Of a stretch of 64,000 nt of DNA, positions 1-64,000 are shown one piece after another. Under the pieces are notes generated by a model, which saw nothing but the letters and a program-made list of their open reading frames with translations, searched no databases and had not been told where the DNA came from. The first letter of the stretch is position 1, and each line of letters opens with the position of its first letter. The DNA is from an uncultured euryarchaeote. GTDB lineage: Archaea > Thermoplasmatota > Poseidoniia > Poseidoniales > Poseidoniaceae. The translations under genes and the position numbers were made by a program. The DNA lies in the NCBI GenBank assembly GCA_937899865.1, contig CALBRH010000063.1, forward strand, positions 1,957-65,956, read 5' to 3'.

Positions 1-150
1 CCCTGGTAACATTACATCTGGGTCGGAGAAACCCCAAGCCATGCCAGGGATAAACAAAACCAAAATTGGAATCATTATTAACATCCGAGTAGAGGTTAAT
101 TTGTCAACAAAAATTCGCTTGGAGATAGAAAAAATTTGACTACTCAGCAT
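1..150 (-). CDS. Membrane protein, N-terminal fragment that runs off the window edge. It is probably the ABC-2-type permease partner of the adjacent ATPase.
   Basis: There is a reverse-strand ATG at 150-148, one nt after the ATPase stop (154-152). My translation, MLSSQIFSISKRIFVDKLTSTRMLIMIPILVLFIPGMAWGF..., contains a hydrophobic span. It is absent from the ORF track because it has no stop in the window. Confidence 0.4.
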   Translation of the reverse strand, partial: MLSSQIFSISKRIFVDKLTSTRMLIMIPILVLFIPGMAWGFSDPDVMLPG

Positions 151-151
151 G

Positions 152-1177
152 TCATTCCTCCTCCGTAGTCGACCTTAATGGCATCATATTTGATGCTTGA
201 ATTTCCATGCCGATATCTTCAATTTCTAATCCAGTAGCGTGACACAATAATTCGACAATATCAGGGGTCTTACGCTTCCATTCAGTAATCTTGTGACCAG
301 CATCAACAATTTTCTTTATGGCATCATCAGCTGGATTTTGAATAGTGCATAGCCAGGTATTTTCAGTTGAAACACAGTCAAGAATAGTACCGGAATTAAT
401 TAAATTTTCAAAATCAGGTATTTCTCCTTCACCATTTAATTCGATTCTATTATCTAAGCCAAGACTAGATTCAATATCTTCTATAGTACCATTTGCAACT
501 ACTTGTCCACGATGAATTAGCAATAACTTATCGATTAAACCAACCAATCCACTAACTTGATGTGATGAGATAATAATTGAAACACCTTTACTTGCTAATT
601 GTTTAATCATTTTCTCAACAGATTTGGCTGCTACTGGATCAAGTCCATTGAATGGTTCGTCAAGCAGCAATATTTTCGGTGAACCCATCAAAGCAATCGC
701 TAAACTCAATCTTTGACGCATTCCTTGACTTAATTCATCGAGTGATGAGTCTGATTTAGTAGTAAGCCCGACTAATTTTAGTAACTTTTCACATGAGATT
801 GATTCAGGTCTCATTTCTGCAAATTCGTTCATTGTTTGCATTACAGTAGTACTACCAGACCACCTTACCTGCTCTGGCATATGCCCAACATTAACTCTAA
901 GTTGATTATCTATGGACATGCCTGATTTTGTAAGATCTATGCCATTGAGTTTAATGGTTCCATTATCGATTGGTATAATTCCCGCTAAAACTCGTAGTAG
1001 AGTGGTTTTCCCAGCACCATTTGGCCCGACAAGTCCGAAAATTTGACCCTTCGTTAGTGAAAAATTCATTCCAAAAATACCAGGTCCCTTGCGTGTTTTC
1101 CAAGGATTAGTGAATTTTGGATTAGGGATTTTATGGCGAAATGTGATATCAATTAACTCGATAACCTTGTCTGCCAT
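152..1177 (-). CDS. ABC transporter ATP-binding protein (ABC-2/exporter type) with a C-terminal extension of about 100 aa
   Basis: Walker A GPNGAGKTT, ABC signature LSQGMRQRL, Walker B LLLDEP and H-loop SSHQ. Confidence 0.9.
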   Translation of the reverse strand: MADKVIELIDITFRHKIPNPKFTNPWKTRKGPGIFGMNFSLTKGQIFGLVGPNGAGKTTLLRVLAGIIPIDNGTIKLNGIDLTKSGMSIDNQLRVNVGHMPEQVRWSGSTTVMQTMNEFAEMRPESISCEKLLKLVGLTTKSDSSLDELSQGMRQRLSLAIALMGSPKILLLDEPFNGLDPVAAKSVEKMIKQLASKGVSIIISSHQVSGLVGLIDKLLLIHRGQVVANGTIEDIESSLGLDNRIELNGEGEIPDFENLINSGTILDCVSTENTWLCTIQNPADDAIKKIVDAGHKITEWKRKTPDIVELLCHATGLEIEDIGMEIQASNMMPLRSTTEEE

Positions 1178-1274
1178 GATGTGGCCTGTTGGTTCAACTA
1201 TGACAAATTAACTTGAAAATCAATATATTTGGCAAACATTATTGCTATGTTACTTAATCCTCAATCTGTTTAAG

Positions 1275-2159
1275 ATGCTTTTCTCGGTTATCATATCCTT
1301 TCTTATGGTAGCTGTTCTATTCTTGATAGTTTACATTTCAAAGCGAAATGAAACAGATGGCCAAATCGAATACAGACTTGCATATGGTGACAAAGGTTTG
1401 GAAATGCTAATTGCATGTGTGGCCCTTTTATGGTTAATTCCATGGGGCGTTTTGATAGTTTTACCACTGGCATTAATTCTCTCAATACTAAGTCCAGCGG
1501 GCAGGGAATCATGGCAAGAATTTGGTAAAATTCGAACATATGCGATTATTTCTATGATTATTGTATTATTAATCGGAGGCTTTGCTCCAACATCAATCCC
1601 TAAGTCTCCAGAAGAGTGGGGGGCGCCATTATTTGTTGAAAATCCAAACGCACCTTTGTACCCTGCCGGACAACAATACACATGGCTAATGCTGCCAACA
1701 GATGGAGGATTGAATGTTGAAATCGTACAATCACTCAGTCTTAGAACGCCTCATCAATTAGGTAAATTTGCATCAGCATCATCCACTCTAGCAATTGCAG
1801 ATATTTTCGATATGCAACAGTCTAGAATGGTACAAGCAATCCAGTTGCTAGATGAACAGATTGTCTTTGATATTGATGAAAATGAAATGCTATTATTACC
1901 GATCAAGGACAAGAAAACACATACTTACGAGGCAGGTGGAGAAAAACATGAATTGGATATAAGACTGTATGAATTAAGGAGTCTGACGTTGAGTTCTGAT
2001 CCTCAAGGAGTTAAAGTTGGTGAAGTGTTTTGTGCAGCAGAATCATCTTGGGGTGGTGAACTGGATATTCTTGTAGTGGTTAGGCCAATAGGACATACAG
2101 GCTTGTCGAGCGACAGGTATGCTGAAAGCCTCACAGTACAGTGGTTATCTGCAGAATAA
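1275..2159 (+). CDS. Hypothetical membrane protein with N-terminal TM helices and a soluble C-terminal half
   Basis: Long ORF (the track starts at a TTG at 1242; I prefer the ATG at 1275). It has several hydrophobic spans in the first 120 aa or so. No recognisable family motif. Confidence 0.45.
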   Translation: MLFSVIISFLMVAVLFLIVYISKRNETDGQIEYRLAYGDKGLEMLIACVALLWLIPWGVLIVLPLALILSILSPAGRESWQEFGKIRTYAIISMIIVLLIGGFAPTSIPKSPEEWGAPLFVENPNAPLYPAGQQYTWLMLPTDGGLNVEIVQSLSLRTPHQLGKFASASSTLAIADIFDMQQSRMVQAIQLLDEQIVFDIDENEMLLLPIKDKKTHTYEAGGEKHELDIRLYELRSLTLSSDPQGVKVGEVFCAAESSWGGELDILVVVRPIGHTGLSSDRYAESLTVQWLSAE

Positions 2160-2233
2160 GTGCGGAAATTGAAAATTTAGGTCAGCCTAAACAATATATA
2201 TGAGTCACTTTTCGGGCAACCTAAAGTGATATC

Positions 2234-4423
2234 ATGACTAAAGCAAAAATACCAGCAATAATGATACTGATAACCCTACTTTCTGCAAGTCTTGCAGGAT
2301 GTATAGGAAATGAAGAAGAATCCAACTCGTCAAACTGTAGTGGTGATGAGTTAAAGATCGCATTTGATCTTAAAGATGATTTGACTCCTGAATCTATTGA
2401 TAACCCAAGTAGAATAGCAGACTATCTTTGTGATGTCTTAGATATGGATGTCACTATCTATGATGTTGACAGTGCTGCCTTAGCAATGGAGGCATTGAGA
2501 TTCGGAAATGCTGACATAGCAATGAATATTGACGGAGGTCCTGCCTGGGTTGGATGGAATGCTTACAATTTAGAAGTTCTAGCAGCCGACACAAAAGATG
2601 ATGGAAGAGCCTTCTATAATGCCCATGCATGGGTACTCAAGGGTAGTGAAATGGAGTTGGCTTTGAATGACGATGATGAGAATACAGATCCATTCGCTCT
2701 ACTAGAAGGAAAAACCTCATGCCACACAGGATGGTTGAAATCTGCAGGCATGCTAATGCCAATGGGATATTTGATCGGGAATGGTTACGTTAATGTTGAA
2801 GGAGATTTATCTGATACTGAAACCCTAAGAACCACAATTAATGACTACTTTGACGGCTCAACTGGAAAAGGCAACCCTGCATCAATACCTGTTAGTGGCG
2901 GATTGTATTCTGGCTACGCAGGAGCATTGGAGTGCTTGAGTGATGGACATGGAGATGTAGCGTTTGCTAAGGATTCAACTGTTGGCAGTTATTGTGCAAA
3001 TGAGAATGCTACAGATAATGCTGAGTGGTGTTTAGACATTAGCCAATATGTGCCACTTCCAAAATTCGGCTCATCACCTTCTCACTCCGTAATGTATAAC
3101 GAAGATGTGTTGGCAGAAGACAAAGAACAGGCTATCAAGGATGCCTTGATTCAGATGAAGGATGATGAAGAGGGACTAGCAATTCTACAAGAGGTTCTTG
3201 GAACTGATGCAATGATTGCAACCAACTCTCAAGACCATCTTGGCACATATGGTGCTGCATTAGAAAATATACCTGGAATCTCCACAAAATATGGCAATGC
3301 ATTTGATGGTGGAACTGCTTTGTCTGATATCAAGTCAACAATAACCATAGCATATTATCTTGCAGAGGACTCATCCGCTAATGCCAACGCAATAGGAATG
3401 GCTGAAAGACTGGAGAATGACCTTGGAGTAAATGTTGAATTGTATGATGTATCTTCTGAAGGTATGATTATTCAGGCCCTAAGATTCGGTAATGCAGACA
3501 TTGGTTTCATGGAAGGCGGTCCAGCATGGATTGCTTGGAAAGAGTATAATCTACAAGTCTTAGCGGTTGAAACCACAACCGCTGAACGAGATACATATTA
3601 CAATGCAGCAGCATGGGTACTGGCAAACAGTACTATGGCTCAATATCACCTTGATGGAGATGATACAACTGATCCGTTTGCCGAATTGGCTGGAAAAACA
3701 TCATGCCACACTGGTTGGTTGAAATCTGCGGGAATGTTGATGCCAATGGGTTACATGATTGGTAATGGTTATGTAAATCCTGTAGGAGATACTGAAGATA
3801 TCAATTCTCTAAGGGATACCATAAATGGTCATTTTGATGGCTCAACCGGAGCAGGAAATCCAGCTTCCATACCAGAAAGTGGTGGACTGTATTCCGGATA
3901 TTCAGGCGCTCTCGAGTGTTTAAGCGAGGGTTATGGAGATGTCGCATTTGCTAAAGGTGATGAATTCAGTACTGTTCACAAATATTGTGATAATGAGGAT
4001 TCAAATGACAACTCTGATTGGTGTTTGCCTTTAGATCAATACGTCCAATTGCCTGCATGGGGTTCCTCTCCAAGCCATCCGATAATGTACAATCCGGAAA
4101 CACTTGATGTTAGGACTCGAAATGCAATATTGAATTCAATGTTAAGTTGGAATGATGAGATGTGGGTAGAAGATTATGAGATGAATGGAGAGACTTACAC
4201 AGGTTGCTACAATACTGTAACTCATTTCGTTGCTGACATACCTCAAGTTCAATGTGGTGGAGAGATTCTATCTAGCGTCACAAGCAAGGGCTACGGTTTA
4301 GCTGCAGGAAATAGTCAGAACCATTTGGGAAGTTATTCTGATCTGTTATCAGCAATACCTGGATTGTCAAAGTACTATCATGACGAAAAATATGGTATTA
4401 CTGAAGCACAAGACCAGTCCTAG
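2234..4423 (+). CDS. Bilobal transferrin-like substrate-binding lipoprotein of an ABC importer. It would probably be auto-annotated as PhnD-like.
   Basis: Signal peptide with lipobox LAGC (Cys23, nt 2300-2302). Two homologous halves each carry ADI..(D/E)GGPAW, (F/Y)YNA.AWVL, KTSCHTGWLKSAGMLMPMGY, GGLYSGY.GALECLS.G.GDVAFAK and SSPSH. These align by eye with the transferrin lobe ligand and anion-site motifs. The gene lies directly upstream of the ABC ATPase and permease. Confidence 0.8.
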   Translation: MTKAKIPAIMILITLLSASLAGCIGNEEESNSSNCSGDELKIAFDLKDDLTPESIDNPSRIADYLCDVLDMDVTIYDVDSAALAMEALRFGNADIAMNIDGGPAWVGWNAYNLEVLAADTKDDGRAFYNAHAWVLKGSEMELALNDDDENTDPFALLEGKTSCHTGWLKSAGMLMPMGYLIGNGYVNVEGDLSDTETLRTTINDYFDGSTGKGNPASIPVSGGLYSGYAGALECLSDGHGDVAFAKDSTVGSYCANENATDNAEWCLDISQYVPLPKFGSSPSHSVMYNEDVLAEDKEQAIKDALIQMKDDEEGLAILQEVLGTDAMIATNSQDHLGTYGAALENIPGISTKYGNAFDGGTALSDIKSTITIAYYLAEDSSANANAIGMAERLENDLGVNVELYDVSSEGMIIQALRFGNADIGFMEGGPAWIAWKEYNLQVLAVETTTAERDTYYNAAAWVLANSTMAQYHLDGDDTTDPFAELAGKTSCHTGWLKSAGMLMPMGYMIGNGYVNPVGDTEDINSLRDTINGHFDGSTGAGNPASIPESGGLYSGYSGALECLSEGYGDVAFAKGDEFSTVHKYCDNEDSNDNSDWCLPLDQYVQLPAWGSSPSHPIMYNPETLDVRTRNAILNSMLSWNDEMWVEDYEMNGETYTGCYNTVTHFVADIPQVQCGGEILSSVTSKGYGLAAGNSQNHLGSYSDLLSAIPGLSKYYHDEKYGITEAQDQS
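2348..3337 (+). repeat. Lobe 1 of the intragenic tandem duplication in the transferrin-like protein
   Basis: Roughly aa 39-368. It is collinear with lobe 2, and long motif blocks are identical (for example tcatgccacac.gg.tggttgaaatctgc at about 2717 and about 3700). Confidence 0.8.
3338..4423 (+). repeat. Lobe 2 of the intragenic tandem duplication in the transferrin-like protein
   Basis: Roughly aa 369-729, with the same motif order as lobe 1. It has an extra C-terminal segment of about 40 aa (WNDEMWVEDYEMNGETYTGCY...). Confidence 0.8.
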
Positions 4424-57314: not shown

Positions 57315-58400
57315 ATGGTCTCCATGCAATCATCTTTGCAAAGAGATGAAAATGGTATGACAGCAGTTATTGAGTTCTTAGCAGCATTCACTCTTTTTTT
57401 GATGATATTAACTGCATTTTTATCATTAGCACAGCTGGAGATGGGTTCAAATGATACTTCGGTTGATAGATTAGATAGAGCCGCAGCGCAAGGTCTTGAC
57501 AGAATGACCTCAGACGGCGGTTGGTTTGTACCAGTATTTGATGATGGCTCTTTGGATTATGAAAATTCAACCTCACATTGGCACCTTCAGCCAATTGATG
57601 AGTTAAATCAAGGTATTGTTTTAGCAGGTTTGATGGGATCTAACACATTAGATTTTGATAAGATTGAAGCATTGAGTAATTTGACCGAGGATAATTTGGC
57701 AAGAGGTTTGGGTCTTAGTGATGAATTCAGTATAAATTTAGAGATTAAAATTACTGAATCAAATATTCCTTCTAGAGATGATTTAGTACTATTTTCAGGC
57801 GGTACTGAAAGAGGAACTGCTCAAGCATCATCGTCTTCATACAAAGAATTACAAGTTGGGCAAGAAAAATTCTTGATAATATTAGAAGTTCATAATGGCG
57901 GCAGGAAAGCCAATAATCTACACATTACCGAGATTAGTCCACGCTCAGTTTCTGGAGCTCCAGAGTGGATAGAATTGTATAATCCTAATAACTTCGCAAT
58001 AGACTTGAATGGCTGGAGTTTTTCACACACATCTTCTAATCAAGACACAAATCTATTGCTTAGAAAGGGTGTGATTTCGGGCAACTCTCTAACCTTGTTT
58101 AGCGGCGATCCAAATGTTCAACAGATTGGGGATGCCGACCATGTTATTGATTTAGGAAGTGAAGGATTCCTTGGAGTGGGGCAAATCGATTTATTGAATG
58201 ACGGCGGCGGAGAGTTAGTTTTATCATATACTCAATTAAGTGAATTTCAGCCGTTTGAAGTTATGCGAGTAACTTGGGGAGGGGATACAGGATTCTTTTT
58301 GACACCAAGCCAATCATTGCAATATGTGACCGATAATTTCCCTCCTGAACAGCAAGATTGGCAAATTTCTAACAACCCAAGCCCGGGAATCATTGAGTAG
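57315..58400 (+). CDS. Lamin-tail-domain (LTD) protein with a pilin/TadE-like N-terminal hydrophobic segment
   Basis: The N-terminus QRDENGMTAVIEFLAAFTLFLMILTAFLSL resembles class III/TadE-type signal sequences. The C-terminal ITEISPRSVSGAPEWIELYNPNNFAIDLNGWSF matches the LTD hallmark (EWIELYN...L.GW). Confidence 0.6.
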   Translation: MVSMQSSLQRDENGMTAVIEFLAAFTLFLMILTAFLSLAQLEMGSNDTSVDRLDRAAAQGLDRMTSDGGWFVPVFDDGSLDYENSTSHWHLQPIDELNQGIVLAGLMGSNTLDFDKIEALSNLTEDNLARGLGLSDEFSINLEIKITESNIPSRDDLVLFSGGTERGTAQASSSSYKELQVGQEKFLIILEVHNGGRKANNLHITEISPRSVSGAPEWIELYNPNNFAIDLNGWSFSHTSSNQDTNLLLRKGVISGNSLTLFSGDPNVQQIGDADHVIDLGSEGFLGVGQIDLLNDGGGELVLSYTQLSEFQPFEVMRVTWGGDTGFFLTPSQSLQYVTDNFPPEQQDWQISNNPSPGIIE

Positions 58401-58441
58401 TATTAATTTGCTATTTATTACATTCAATAATCGGATGCTTC

Positions 58442-59257
58442 ATGAACCTGCGTGATTTAGGGGTAGTGTTCCACATGCAGCCAGCTACTGTGTATTCACG
58501 TGACAGATGTGTTACAGGTGTTCACGGTCTTGATGAGATACTTAGAGGTGGAATACCTTACGGTTCGACAGTATTGGCCGCAGGTACTTGTGGTTCTGGA
58601 AAAACTACATTGGGAATGGAATTCTTGGTGAGAGGTGCTAATGCTGGTGAAGCATGTGCGCATTTTACTGCTACAGAACCATCAGTAAAATTGCTAGAAA
58701 ACATTCGTCAATTTGCATTTTTCGATATGAACATGGTAGATACTGGATTAATCAACGTATTCGATATGGATGTTCTATATTCTTGGCTAGGTTTGGAAAA
58801 ATCAACTTTTGATTTAGAAGATGTTCATTCACTAATCAAATCAATCGTAGATATTGTAAATACAATTGGAGTAACAAGATTAGTTATTGATTCGGTAACT
58901 ACATTATGTTACAAAATTAAATCAGAACAGTTGATAAGAGATTTCCTGTTCACTCTTGGTAAGAAATTAGCCACACTGGGTTGTACTACCATTCTGATTG
59001 CAGAGATTACTTCAGCAACTGAAAATGCTCACTGGTCTTCTTTTGGTGTAGAAGAAGCGATTTGTGATGGTATAATTGTTCTTGGCGATGTTGAAAGAAT
59101 GGGTCATCTACTTAGGTTCTTGCAAGTGGTTAAGATGCGAGGAACTCCTCATAGCAGGGCTAAGCATGCTATCGAATTGACACCTCTTGGTGTGATGCTG
59201 ACACCTATGCTTAAGTGGGGTGCAATAAGCGATAATGTAAATCGATGGGGTAGTTGA
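58442..59257 (+). CDS. KaiC/RecA-superfamily ATPase (single-domain, COG0467-like), motifs intact
   Basis: GLDEILRGGIPYGSTVLAAGTCGSGKTTLG (Walker A), RLVIDSVT (Walker B) and VVKMRGTPH. The true start may be the ATG at 58475. Confidence 0.8.
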   Translation: MNLRDLGVVFHMQPATVYSRDRCVTGVHGLDEILRGGIPYGSTVLAAGTCGSGKTTLGMEFLVRGANAGEACAHFTATEPSVKLLENIRQFAFFDMNMVDTGLINVFDMDVLYSWLGLEKSTFDLEDVHSLIKSIVDIVNTIGVTRLVIDSVTTLCYKIKSEQLIRDFLFTLGKKLATLGCTTILIAEITSATENAHWSSFGVEEAICDGIIVLGDVERMGHLLRFLQVVKMRGTPHSRAKHAIELTPLGVMLTPMLKWGAISDNVNRWGS

Positions 59258-59258
59258 G

Positions 59259-59843
59259 ATGTTTGAATTAGACCAAGGAATTGCAGATCAGTTAACCGAG
59301 GTTTCACTAAACAGTTCAGTTCAAGTTAGGTGTGGCAACTCAAATTCATTTATGGTTACCGCAAGCACCTTGATTCCTCTATTACAAATGTTTGAGATGA
59401 AAGGAGTTTACATATCGGCTAGTCGTGGTGCTGCTGAGATAATTCAAGCATTCGAATCGGTAGGTATTGATGTTTCACAGATTCAATTCATTGACTTAGT
59501 CTCATCAGGAATTCTTGGTGGCACTAATGTCCCATATTCTAACGTACATTTTGTAGATAGTCCCATTATGCTTGAGTCGATATTACTTCGAACATTGTAT
59601 ATTTTGCAGACCAACCAATCAGAAAGAAATTTTGTCTTTGTAGATAGCGTGAATGCACTAGCGATTTACAATGACGATAGGATGCTTGCTGAATATCTGC
59701 ACACTTTCATCAATACATTTAGACAACAGGAGGTTCTATCTGTTATTCTCAATGTACCAGACCAAACTCCGCCACTAGTCTTATCAAACTTAGATTTGTA
59801 TTGTACCGATTTGGTTGACAGAGGTCAAGTAGTAATTCATTGA
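59259..59843 (+). CDS. Degenerate KaiC/RecA-like protein lacking a P-loop
   Basis: It starts 1 nt after the upstream stop. It keeps a KaiC-like strand order (VYISASRG..., FVFVDSVNAL, VLSVILNV), but the P-loop position reads CGNSNSF. Confidence 0.45.
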   Translation: MFELDQGIADQLTEVSLNSSVQVRCGNSNSFMVTASTLIPLLQMFEMKGVYISASRGAAEIIQAFESVGIDVSQIQFIDLVSSGILGGTNVPYSNVHFVDSPIMLESILLRTLYILQTNQSERNFVFVDSVNALAIYNDDRMLAEYLHTFINTFRQQEVLSVILNVPDQTPPLVLSNLDLYCTDLVDRGQVVIH

Positions 59844-60658
59844 TGGGTGATTATATGTCTAAAGAGATTCAATTTGACTCAGAAGATGAGGAGTTTTTCG
59901 GCTCAGTTGGATCATTTGGTGTTCCCAAGTTTGACAATGAAATGAGAGGAGGAGTGCCTCGTGGTTTCACAATGATTGCGTTTACAGAAACAGGTTCAGG
60001 TAGTGAGTTGTTTGCCAAGCAATTTGTATCTCCTGCCGAAGAGGCTGAAAATACCATTTACATCTCAACTAACGAAGGTCAGGCAGAAATAGTTCGGATT
60101 TTTCAGAAATATGACTGGCCACTGGATATCAATGTACGTACAATAGGAGAAGAGTATAATTCTAACGTTTTGGAAAAAGAGTTACTTGCTAGCAGGTATC
60201 GTTTGGAAGGTTTCCGTTTGGAGGATATTCAAAGGTTAGCTCAAACAAGATTTGTTGAAGAAAATAACCAAGATTATCTTACTGAGGTAACCAATGAAGT
60301 CATGGCGCTTGGACCCTACTTTAGAGCAGTTGTTGACAGTCTCGATTTCTTTTTGCAAAGAGACGATCCTACAAGAGTAGTTGCTATGGTTAGAATGCTT
60401 CAAGCACATGCACAAATGTATCGAGGGTTGCTGTTTATTACTGTCTCAACCGATGGTCTTTCTCTAAGCATAAAACAAGAATTATCCTCTATTGCCGATA
60501 TGGTATTGTCGTTTCAAGTTAGAACGATAGGTAGCGATTTCGAAACTTCAATGATGGTTTCAAAGTTTAGAAACGCACCTGAAAATTTGAAAATCTTGGT
60601 ATTCAGAGTTACTCCGGAGGAAGGAATAACACCAGAAACCGTCGAGCGTATTGCTTGA
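59843..60658 (+). CDS. KaiC/RecA-like protein with a degenerate Walker A (GSGSE)
   Basis: The start overlaps the upstream stop (TGATG). Motifs are FDNEMRGGVPRGFTMIAFTETGSGSELFAKQF, AVVDSLDFF and MVSKFRNAP. Confidence 0.6.
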   Translation: MGDYMSKEIQFDSEDEEFFGSVGSFGVPKFDNEMRGGVPRGFTMIAFTETGSGSELFAKQFVSPAEEAENTIYISTNEGQAEIVRIFQKYDWPLDINVRTIGEEYNSNVLEKELLASRYRLEGFRLEDIQRLAQTRFVEENNQDYLTEVTNEVMALGPYFRAVVDSLDFFLQRDDPTRVVAMVRMLQAHAQMYRGLLFITVSTDGLSLSIKQELSSIADMVLSFQVRTIGSDFETSMMVSKFRNAPENLKILVFRVTPEEGITPETVERIA

Positions 60659-61870: not shown

Positions 61871-64000
61871 ATGTTTGAAACTGCTGAAATGTCCAGACTT
61901 ACTGTGGCATCTCCAGTTGATAAATTAGAGGAAGTAATTCGAATCTGCGCAGATTTAGGATGTGTACATATTGAAGAATATGGCAACTTCGAAGACGGAA
62001 TAGGAGTCGGGCAATCAATTTCTTCCGATGAATCAGCCAAGACCAGTCAATTGTTAACCAAAGCTCGTGCTCTTCAATCTGAAATTAGTGCGATTAATAC
62101 GGATGGTCCAAAATCTCTTGCTGAAGTGAAGAAGTTAGTAGATTCTATGGCTTCAAAGATCGATGACGCTTTAGCAAATATCGATGAGGTTAGAGATTCA
62201 GAGTCTGAGATCTCCAATCTTAATGAAAGAGTAAAAGCGCTTGAAAGAGTAGCTCCTCTTGGCATACCATTGGACTTAATGGCCGGTTTTGAGGGTTTAG
62301 AATTATTTATTGCTGAGACATCTAAGGCTTCTAAAGCATATTCAGAATTTTCCGACATTTTGTCCAACATTGAACTTCAGGTGGCAAAGGGAGTTATTGC
62401 TGTTGCTTGCAGGCCATCAGATAGCGCTGCTATTCAAATCGGATTAAGTGCACTAGGTGCAAAACCAATTCAAATTCCATCTGGTGAAGGTTCTGCTGAA
62501 ACAATGATCGCAGAGGCCAAATCAAATATTGAATCTCTTGAATCAAGTATTGACTCATCAAATAAAGCAATCAATCAATGGAGCAAGGAATACGGAAGAG
62601 ATTTAGTGATACTTCTTGAACATCTAGAAAGGGAAGAATCAATTTACACTGCCCCAACACTTTTTGCAGTTAGTAACAAAGCATTTGTTCTGGATGGATG
62701 GGTGCCGAGTTCAGATAAAAGCAAAGTGGAAAGTGCACTTGGAAAAGTCGCATCACATATTTCTATAGAACAGCATGTTGACGACCACCATCATCATGAT
62801 GACCATGATGATTCAAGCCATGTAAAAGAAGTTCCAGAAGAACTTCAAATGCTTTCAGACTATCTTGAAATGAAGAATATTACTGTATTCGAATTTTTCA
62901 AGAGCATGGACTTAGATGAGTCTGGTGAACTGGAATTTGCAGAGATTGAGGCAGCGATGAAAAAAGCAGACATCCCTGATATGCCGCCGCTAAATATGGC
63001 TAGATTTTTAGCCGCTATCGATTTGAATCGAGACGGGAAAATAAACCTCCCAGAGCTTGATTTAGCGATTGGTGCAATCCGTAATGGATCTTATACTACA
63101 GCGGAACACCATGATGACGCACAACCCCCAATCAAATTTGAAAATGGAGAATTTTCAGAACCATTCGAACTGTTAGTAGATTTAGTTGGAAGGCCGAAAT
63201 ATGGAACCTTTGATCCGACACTATTGATGACTTTTACATTCCCAATATTCTACGGTATGATTCTAGGAGACTGGGGTTACGGTCTAGTTCTATGTGCTAT
63301 TGCAGCATACTTTGGAAGTAAACCATTCGCAGTAGATCCACTGGCTCAAAATGGACTTACAATTTTGAGATGGATGGGGATTTGGTGTATAATATGGGGG
63401 CTAATATTCGCAGAAGGTTTTGGTTTCGTTTGGGACGATACGGGTCAAATGGGCAATTCTTCACCATTCGATTTCATCTATGATTGGACCTATGCTAATA
63501 TTCATGTTCCAGGTACATTAGCAGACTTACTAGCAATGGGAGGATTACACGTGCCTTTCCATAGAGCAACTCCTGGAGGCGGCCTTCAAGAGTATGTAGT
63601 GTTATCAGTTTATGTTGGAATATTACATATTTTTGTTGGACTATTTATCGGATTATACACCGTCTGGAAGGCACATGGTGCAGCAGCAGCATTCTTCGAA
63701 AAAGGCTCATGGTTACTGATTATGACTGGCGGTACAATGCAAGCAAGAAACATGGTTATGGGATTCAATGAATTATTTGAATTCCAAATTTGGACACTAT
63801 TGATTGCTGTTGGATTGGTTTCTCTTGTTATTGGATTGGCAGTCTACGAGAAGTTTGGATGGGTTGGAGGCCTTGTAATGGGTCCAATTGAAATATTTGG
63901 CCTATTGGCAAATACTCTCTCATATCTAAGAATAATGGGCGTAGGTGTTGCAGGCGTTAAAATCGCAGAGATCTCTATCAATATGGGTTGGGAAAAAATC
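61871..64000 (+). CDS. atpI: A-type ATP synthase subunit I (stator/proton-channel a subunit), 5' part that continues past the window. It contains an inserted EF-hand pair.
   Basis: My own translation from the ATG at 61871 is open to the window end. It begins MFETAEMSRLTVASPVDKLEEVIRICADLGCVHIEEY. The later section reads PPIKFENGEFSEPFELLVDLVGRPKYGTFDPT and is followed by TM helices. It is absent from the ORF track because there is no stop in the window. Confidence 0.85.
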   Translation, partial: MFETAEMSRLTVASPVDKLEEVIRICADLGCVHIEEYGNFEDGIGVGQSISSDESAKTSQLLTKARALQSEISAINTDGPKSLAEVKKLVDSMASKIDDALANIDEVRDSESEISNLNERVKALERVAPLGIPLDLMAGFEGLELFIAETSKASKAYSEFSDILSNIELQVAKGVIAVACRPSDSAAIQIGLSALGAKPIQIPSGEGSAETMIAEAKSNIESLESSIDSSNKAINQWSKEYGRDLVILLEHLEREESIYTAPTLFAVSNKAFVLDGWVPSSDKSKVESALGKVASHISIEQHVDDHHHHDDHDDSSHVKEVPEELQMLSDYLEMKNITVFEFFKSMDLDESGELEFAEIEAAMKKADIPDMPPLNMARFLAAIDLNRDGKINLPELDLAIGAIRNGSYTTAEHHDDAQPPIKFENGEFSEPFELLVDLVGRPKYGTFDPTLLMTFTFPIFYGMILGDWGYGLVLCAIAAYFGSKPFAVDPLAQNGLTILRWMGIWCIIWGLIFAEGFGFVWDDTGQMGNSSPFDFIYDWTYANIHVPGTLADLLAMGGLHVPFHRATPGGGLQEYVVLSVYVGILHIFVGLFIGLYTVWKAHGAAAAFFEKGSWLLIMTGGTMQARNMVMGFNELFEFQIWTLLIAVGLVSLVIGLAVYEKFGWVGGLVMGPIEIFGLLANTLSYLRIMGVGVAGVKIAEISINMGWEKI
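62777..63124 (+). other. Insertion in AtpI consisting of a His/Asp-rich tract, two EF-hand loops and a second His/Asp tract
   Basis: Translated as VDDHHHHDDHDDSSH...FFKSMDLDESGELEFAEIEAAM...FLAAIDLNRDGKINLPELDLAI...TTAEHHDDAQ. The EF loops are at nt 62909-62944 and 63020-63055. Confidence 0.75.

Follow-up and report, generated by a model that had tools for sequence, protein, structure and literature searches.

A conserved operon of one intact and two inactivated KaiC-like proteins in Poseidoniales, and its linkage to type IV pilin genes

Poseidoniales rank with the most abundant archaea in the surface ocean, and have no cultured member. Their attachment to particles and their switching between attached and free-living states have been deduced from genomes alone. 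The window analysed here, a stretch of 64,000 nucleotides (nt) from contig CALBRH010000063.1 of a Poseidoniaceae (Marine Group IIa) metagenome-assembled genome (MAG; GCA_937899865.1, labelled G000 below, with its contigs given C-numbers), carries an operon of three genes, A, B and C, hereafter the triad. Their products are an intact KaiC-like ATPase and two proteins of predicted KaiC fold without a functional P-loop. Comparisons were made with 41 relatives within Poseidoniales, representing 11 genera, and with a phylum-level sample of 161 Thermoplasmatota genomes from 98 genera. The phyletic counts are not phylogenetically independent.

Three coupled genes and their products

The triad occupies the following positions of the window, with protein lengths in amino acids (aa).
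58442..59257, plus strand: gene A, intact single-domain KaiC-like ATPase of 271 aa
59259..59843, plus strand: gene B, truncated and inactivated protein of predicted KaiC fold, 194 aa
59843 (ATG) or 59840 (TTG)..60658, plus strand: gene C, inactivated protein of KaiC/ArlH fold, 271 or 272 aa

A preliminary description of this DNA had proposed that the three genes are consecutive and translationally coupled, and both the listing of open reading frames (ORFs) and the junction sequences agree with it. As read from the sequence, A and B are separated by a 1-nt gap (...agtTGAgATG...), while B and C are joined by a TGATG overlap (...catTGATGggt...). The motifs that it quoted, GTCGSGKTT and RLVIDSV for A, CGNSNSF for B, and GSGSE for C, are all present in the translations.

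By its sequence, the product of gene A belongs to the KaiC-like superfamily. It matches the Pfam KaiC model (PF06745; curated threshold 26.6 bits) over its full length with 179.6 bits (E value 8.3e-53), and aligns along its whole length with the CI domain of KaiC chains in the PDB (E value 1.4e-45). The catalytic set is complete and includes the Walker A motif GTCGSGKTT, Glu79 in the sequence TATE, the Walker B motif RLVIDS, and the Arg-finger strand VKMRGT. Of the two catalytic Glu residues, only the second is kept in the alignment with KaiC from the PDB, A having Thr in place of the first. The true start of the protein is probably the conserved Met12, at position 58475, because orthologues align only from this residue on. 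A was also compared with the circadian KaiC models, against which this single-domain protein of 271 aa scored 95.8 bits (TIGR02655; cut-off 546) and 127.2 bits (NF006799; cut-off 408). Identity as a circadian KaiC was rejected, since these scores are far below the cut-offs and the CI-CII tandem of approximately 500 aa is lacking.

The product of gene C shares full-length similarity with the same Pfam model (57.4 bits; E value 1.8e-15), and its best NCBIfam model is ArlH (E value 1.3e-15). Alignment of the C and A profiles with hhalign is in register over 220 columns, and places the P-loop of C, TGSGSE, opposite that of A such that Lys54 is replaced with Ser and Thr55 with Glu. Other catalytic residues are kept, namely Glu78 (STNE), the Walker-B Asp (VVDSLD), and Arg243 (KFRN). 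The best match of C among PDB sequences is SSO2452. Structure predictions were confined to AF2 models of single chains, which were then searched with Foldseek. The model of C is of moderate confidence (predicted local distance difference test score, pLDDT, 67), with a conserved helical insertion at approximately residues 105–141 that is itself modelled with low confidence. It retrieved KaiC with an E value of 1.5e-13 and FlaH with template-modelling (TM) scores of 0.70–0.71, the FlaH structure 4yds being the second match.

The product of gene B has neither a P-loop nor a catalytic Glu. It ends before the C-terminal β-hairpin that bears the Arg finger, and the Walker-B residue Asp129 is the sole member of the catalytic set that is left. 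Its match to the Pfam KaiC model (24.7 bits; E value 1.8e-5) lies just under the threshold, as does that to DUF7090 (PF23365; 23.7 bits; E value 4e-5; cut-off 27), and a search of PDB sequences using the B profile gave no match. Alignment of B with A or C by hhalign gave insignificant scores, the profiles being shallow; the local alignment of B with A sets the Walker-B strands in register. The AF2 model of B has a pLDDT of 87 and a predicted TM score (pTM) of 0.86. Foldseek matched it with a probability of 1.00 to FlaH (4yds, the top match), KaiC-CI and PH0284, with E values of approximately 1e-6 to 1e-7 and TM scores of 0.6–0.7. The predicted KaiC/ArlH fold of B is thus based on the Pfam and Foldseek results. 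The RecA/KaiC fold assigned in the preliminary description to the second and third proteins is borne out for C by profile and for both proteins by AF2 and Foldseek.

Proteins related to B are numerous and varied in architecture. The B profile matched 1015 representative proteins at an E value of 0.001 or lower, including forms of the DUF7504/DUF835 type and forms fused to TPR repeats. Relatives found with this profile match DUF7504 (PF24336) above its cut-off, with 34–49.6 bits, and also carry DUF835, to which B-type domains are found fused. In proteins of 900–1800 aa the B-type domain is located at the C-terminus, together with TPR/SNAP repeats and CARDB/TRAP-beta Ig-like domains (P0174, P0177, P0200, P0190 and P0223 are among them). 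In one protein of 2600 aa, P0149, the B profile matches in 18 stretches.

Conservation of the triad and its neighbourhood

In the B family no P-loop is conserved, and the invariants are Y51, F-x-D79, ESP-x-MLE106, D129 (the Walker-B residue), N138, and L-x-E145. The C family was aligned from eight lineages (four genera of Poseidoniales and four distant members of Thermoplasmatota), all of which show the signature G-x-G-x-[ED]-[LF]F-x-KQF; the Ser/Thr position of Walker A is acidic in each of them, and K, S, M, L or T is found at the Lys position. Across families of Poseidoniales, amino acid identity is 77% for A, 52–70% for B, and 52–60% for C. The product of the gene upstream of A, referred to here as the LTD protein, has only 36–40% identity over the same range, below both B and C. 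That the identities of B and C exceed those of the LTD protein, and that their signatures persist throughout the phylum, suggests that both genes are under purifying selection. Judged by these comparisons, B and C are ancient, maintained, functional pseudo-enzymes and not decaying copies. The preliminary description of one intact and two degenerate paralogues is in this respect upheld by the motifs, the profiles, and the conserved signatures.

Within Poseidoniales, B, C, and the LTD protein have an identical presence set of 31 of the 41 relatives, corresponding to 6 of the 11 genera, and are absent from genera with genomes of 1.3–1.6 Mb. At the phylum level, B-like genes were found in 74 of the 161 Thermoplasmatota genomes (44 of the 98 genera). 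The order A-B-C is constant in all triad loci, including those outside Poseidoniales, so that the synteny anticipated in the preliminary description was recovered in all 31 relatives carrying the triad and also in distant Thermoplasmatota. At L116/L117 a pair of A and B genes is followed by a Pilin_N gene, without C. Further pairs of A and B genes with an adjoining Pilin_N gene apparently occur at G115:C56, G168:C3, G079:C60, and G044:C10. Given these lineages, C would be a later or dispensable addition.

Two further genes accompany the triad in Poseidoniales, and in the window their positions are as follows.
57315..58400, plus strand: LTD protein, pilin-like or TadE-like membrane protein of 361 aa
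54247..57207, minus strand: surface protein of 986 aa, divergent from the operon

The order of a divergent gene for a 970–1117-aa surface protein, the LTD gene, A, B, and C was seen at every Poseidoniales locus examined, and the LTD gene is always located approximately 1.9 kb upstream of B in the 31 relatives. Outside Poseidoniales, no LTD gene was found beside the triads at the loci examined. The LTD domain is recognized by Pfam above threshold (E value 2.4e-9). The N-terminus of the LTD protein is hydrophobic and TadE/pilin-like, with the sequence DE-x-G/A-(L/M)TAV(I/V)EFL-x-AF-x-LFL conserved in eight orthologues. The 986-aa surface protein has a signal or anchor at its N-terminus, a large ectodomain rich in Asn, a stalk with the sequence PEPEPEPEPP and, at the C-terminus, a transmembrane helix with a basic tail; a Pfam scan revealed no domain in it, and one orthologue gives a weak match to CARDB. 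At locus L118 (positions 1–4305) it is a 1435-aa all-TPR protein that faces the triad. This giant was considered as a homologue of the 986-aa surface protein and was rejected, as the two share no homology.

The LTD gene and A are separated by a spacer of 41 nt. Inspection of this spacer (58400–58441) by eye alone shows an AT-rich, TATA-like sequence, ATTTATTA, approximately 25–30 nt 5' of the start codon of A, which is not relied on here. Such a sequence would fit an archaeal TATA box inside the operon, giving a leaderless transcript of A-B-C besides read-through from the LTD gene.

On the 3' side of C, the window contains a gene for a methyltransferase of the UbiE/MenG type, followed by genes of an A-type ATP synthase (Pfam/NCBIfam). 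UbiE occupies this position in the source genus; in genera g2 and g9 it is taken by a Pilin_N pilin gene overlapping the end of C, and in g3 and g11 by a convergent gene for an A24-type prepilin peptidase. Of the neighbours named in the preliminary description, the LTD gene upstream is present in all Poseidoniales relatives that carry the triad. The ubiE gene downstream is incidental, its place being taken in other genera by a pilin, a peptidase or something else. The ORF for subunit I of the ATP synthase (61871–64000) contains an inserted segment, in which two EF-hand-like loops (DLDESGELEFAE... and DLNRDGKINLPELD) come after a tract rich in His and Asp, HHHHDDHDDSSH. In family f2, mutS and mutL lie 2–3 genes from the block of triad and pilin genes (L013, 1742–6336; L018, 3808–8438); they are not so placed in other families, and their position is probably coincidental.

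Several other identities were considered for the triad. Profile scores of 22.2 bits for RadB (cut-off 172.4) and 13–17 bits for RadA (cut-offs 259–361) are far under the cut-offs, and identity with RadA or RadB was rejected. An Elongator-type function was likewise rejected, as Elp3 (TIGR01211) is missing: it is absent in 40 of 41 Poseidoniales, G000 included, while archaeal control genomes score with the same model. The lone Elp3 gene (G027:C10:14398–16002; 474 bits) is in a MAG with 6% contamination, and may be foreign or a rare acquisition. Anti-phage defence is not supported: PADLOC returned only a marginal mad8 match for A (E value 2e-4), and B, C and the two accompanying proteins (LTD and surface protein) gave none.

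Linkage to pilin genes and separation from the archaellum

Pilin genes adjoin the triad in many lineages, a functional context that the preliminary description had missed. Besides the pilin genes that overlap the end of C in g2 and g9, the genes A-B-C are followed by two Pilin_N genes at L114/L115 and at L118/L119, and there is no pilin neighbour at L111 and in G084. Of the 26 strong orthologues of B from outside Poseidoniales, at least 8 have a Pilin_N gene at a distance of 5 kb or less. The chance expectation, a rough estimate from the density of pilin genes, is approximately 2%, and the true count may exceed 8, several of the B genes being at contig ends. In G000 itself an orthologue of the pilin (47–51% identity) is encoded at C63:140639–141133, flanked by MoaA and AroA-like neighbours as in other genera. 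A pilus core of the order T2SSF-T2SSF-T2SSE is located 5 kb from it (C63:133276–135847). Since its MoaA and AroA-like flanks are shared with other genera, the pilin of G000 was probably parted from the triad by a rearrangement in the source genus.

Co-occurrence points in the same direction. Of the 11 genera, the six with the triad are also those in which the orthologous pilin and a T2SSE of 412 aa (C63:134609–135847 in G000) are found, and mismatches are limited to MAGs that are 65–80% complete. Among Poseidoniales examined for Pilin_N, none of nine triad-negative genomes had a match, vs. all four triad-positive genomes with 3–7 matches each, and in other orders Pilin_N was present in 47 of 48 B-positive genomes. 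Linkage to and co-occurrence with Pilin_N, an A24 peptidase, and a T2SSE/T2SSF core, as would be expected of a type IV pilus accessory, were found for the triad, although linkage does not prove function and the streamlining of genomes is a confounder.

Judging from its gene content, G000 holds several pilus-like systems. In addition to its archaellum (arl) genes and the core on C63, at least two further loci of the T2SSE family are present (C1:37398–41659 and C28:43293–44639), and because of these additional loci the triad is not assignable to one particular pilus system. The pilus ATPase never adjoins the triad; in several genomes the two share a contig, at a distance of 50–80 kb. Several large proteins of G000 (493–1063 aa; C28:18528, C60:672, and C65:32969) start with a Pilin_N signal. 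Giant frames of 4500–5500 aa with a Pilin_N-like hydrophobic segment are present in G000 (C55:49095–65639) and at G028:C3:51115, G033:C9:8636, and G026:C12:15488. In the frame on C55 the segment is at the C-terminal end, and may be the pilin-like anchor of a huge adhesin and not a class III signal peptide.

The archaellum itself is encoded elsewhere. A complete arl operon is present in G000 (C25:78.4–86 kb) and comprises two archaellins, ArlF, ArlG, ArlH (243 aa), ArlI and ArlJ. The statement of the preliminary description that no ArlI/ArlJ or archaellin genes are nearby is true; the arl operon of G000 is on another contig, and ArlI is distributed differently from the triad. The triad occurs without ArlI in G026, G028, and G034, genomes that are 93–98% complete and in which pilin and T2SSE are present, and ArlI occurs without the triad in G035. 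With the ArlH/FlaH model NF052589 (cut-off 215 bits), C scored 57.7 bits and A 35.6 bits, and B gave no match. Identity of any of these proteins with ArlH was rejected on the basis of the separate arl operon, the differing ArlI pattern, and the sub-threshold scores.

A candidate KaiC-type switch and its relation to known systems

We propose, giving the idea about an even chance of being correct, that the triad encodes a hetero-oligomeric KaiC-type switch tied to a type IV pilus-like surface apparatus, whose assembly or expression it would control. Our confidence in any specific stoichiometry or docking partner is much lower. The three products would be subunits of one KaiC-type complex, either a ring or a sub-ring, in which ATP is predicted from the motifs to be bound and hydrolysed by A alone, with B and C acting as structural or partner-binding pseudo-ATPase subunits. 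In Poseidoniales the apparatus would comprise the Pilin_N pilin, the LTD protein, the large anchored surface protein, the A24 peptidase, and T2SSE with two T2SSF proteins. The nucleotide or autophosphorylation state of A might switch the complex, by analogy with ArlH bound to ArlI and with the CirA protein of Haloferax, and the switched complex would then gate the assembly, or the expression, of pilus and adhesin. We infer a single hetero-oligomeric complex because it would agree with four observations: the genes are translationally coupled, their order is fixed, their phyletic sets are identical, and the motifs that they retain are complementary. The last of these, with A whole, C retaining Arg, Asp and Glu without a P-loop, and B having neither P-loop nor Arg, fits specialised positions in a ring. 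The asymmetric hetero-oligomeric ring put forward in the preliminary description was likewise a reasonable inference from the coupling and the strict co-inheritance.

A number of observations weigh against this proposal. Lineages with only A and B exist, so that a three-subunit composition is not universal, and the model of C is of only moderate confidence (pLDDT 67). Eight of 11 B-negative genomes of other orders also have Pilin_N, and therefore pili do not require the triad. In G000 the pilin and the T2SSE/T2SSF genes are 74–80 kb from the triad, and in G084, which is a complete genome, there is no pilin nearby. The triad-negative Poseidoniales are streamlined (1.3–1.6 Mb) and are without both Pilin_N and most T2SSE paralogues, and the co-loss of triad and pili may in part reflect general genome reduction.

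Some of these observations would be accommodated by a general KaiC-type signalling hub, mechanically unconnected with a pilus, in which A autophosphorylates, B and C are adaptor or output subunits, and several envelope genes are controlled transcriptionally or post-translationally, such that proximity to pilin genes marks just one regulon. Such a hub is possible, but less likely than the pilus-linked switch. It would agree with the fusion of B-type domains to TPR/SNAP/CARDB giants and their position beside DUF835, and with the TPR giant facing the triad at L118, all of which is typical of signalling scaffolds. It would agree also with the triads of G084 and L111 that have no pilin neighbour, with the fact that a pilus ATPase is nowhere adjacent, and with CirA, which works at the transcript level (PMC10983859). 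However, pilin genes are located directly downstream of the triad, often overlapping it, in many lineages, co-occurrence with Pilin_N is perfect within Poseidoniales, and none of the three proteins has a DNA-binding or sensor domain by Pfam. The pilus-linked switch could alternatively take a much more specific form, i.e., an obligate, asymmetric (A-B-C)2 hetero-hexamer with catalytic interfaces of one kind only, in which the P-loop of A is completed in trans by the Arg of C, B is a fingerless spacer, and the whole is docked under the T2SSE of a non-archaellar pilus. We regard this form as unlikely. If it were true, ordinary archaeal pili would gain an ArlH-like clutch of pseudo-ATPases, an archaeal counterpart of the rings formed by Elp456 and Rad51 paralogues in eukaryotes.

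The existence of A-B pairs without C, and the many other architectures in which B-like domains work, would be expected if the three proteins acted separately, A as a homo-hexameric ATPase and B and C as independent non-catalytic proteins that are merely co-transcribed. We consider this quite unlikely, as the gene order and translational coupling are fixed throughout the phylum, B, C, and the LTD protein share identical phyletic sets, and the Arg finger and Walker-B residues of C would be useful only at a subunit interface. Finally, the position of SSO2452 at the top of the PDB sequence matches of C, together with weak matches of A to RadB, RecA, and PAXNEB and of B to Elp5, and the presence of MutS and MutL a few genes away in family f2, could be taken to indicate a recombination mediator of the RadA-paralogue type (like aRadC/SSO2452, Rad51 paralogues, or Shu) or an Elp456-like ring for tRNA modification. 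This is highly improbable, and its Elongator part is largely refuted by the near-complete absence of Elp3. RadA and RadB scores fall far short of the cut-offs, the triad, which half of the genera lack, is not part of housekeeping repair, the MutS/MutL neighbourhood is limited to one family, and the linkage to pilins would be unaccounted for.

The module is kept in particle-associated genera with larger genomes and lost in streamlined ones. It would connect pilins and a giant surface protein with a KaiC-type switch, which makes it a concrete candidate for the control of attachment. Since its carriers include complete genomes (G084 and G145, of 1.4–1.5 Mb), which may be of cultured strains, the idea that archaeal KaiC proteins and their inactive paralogues form regulatory hubs could be tested in a defined system of three proteins.

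The preliminary description did not recognise the triad as a described system, which was an overstatement. The accessible part of the work of Makarova, Koonin and Albers (2016; PMC4858521) already presents KaiC-family ATPases (arCOG01171, arCOG01174, and arCOG01175) at archaeal type IV pilus loci as predicted regulators. Galperin et al. (2018; PMC5847659), citing Makarova et al. (2017), named inactivated KaiC domains "iKaiC" (e.g., DUF835, MEDS, and DUF7504/DUF7090). That KaiC-like proteins with inactive partners regulate archaeal surface structures is therefore published as a prediction. For the fixed triad, its signatures, its phylum-wide spread, and the module with the LTD and surface proteins, we found no description in the literature examined, although such operons may be catalogued by Makarova et al. 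(2017).

The triad resembles the systems of PMC4858521 in that KaiC-like genes are located in or beside euryarchaeal pilin and type IV pilus loci, with a regulatory role proposed; the fixed set of one active and two inactive proteins, the LTD partner, and the Poseidoniales module are not described in the accessible part of that paper. It would resemble iKaiC in the idea of a KaiC fold, devoid of ATPase motifs, that serves as an interaction module; B matches DUF7090 just under the cut-off, and relatives of B match DUF7504 and adjoin DUF835. B differs in being a stand-alone protein of approximately 190 aa, whose gene is translationally coupled on one side to that of an active KaiC and on the other to that of another paralogue, inactivated in a different way. 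Cyanobacterial KaiC has the Walker A, Walker B, Glu, and Arg finger in common with A, but it is a CI-CII tandem of approximately 520 aa, whereas A is a single domain of approximately 260 aa; no KaiA or KaiB gene was detected among the ORFs and Pfam matches of the neighbourhood examined. The Elp456 and Rad51-paralogue rings, in which RecA-fold paralogues, mostly catalytically dead, form one asymmetric ring, provide an analogy only. There is no significant sequence relation (E values 0.02–0.13), Elp3 is lacking, and the context here is pilins and not tRNA or DNA metabolism. CirA of Haloferax represses arl genes and interacts genetically with pilins (PMC10983859). ArlH (FlaH), a single-domain protein of KaiC fold that works with a type IV filament machine, forms a KaiC-like ring that docks on the T2SSE-family ATPase ArlI (PMC5019145). 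It is one ATP-binding protein, whereas the operon described here encodes three paralogous proteins, of which two lack a working P-loop.

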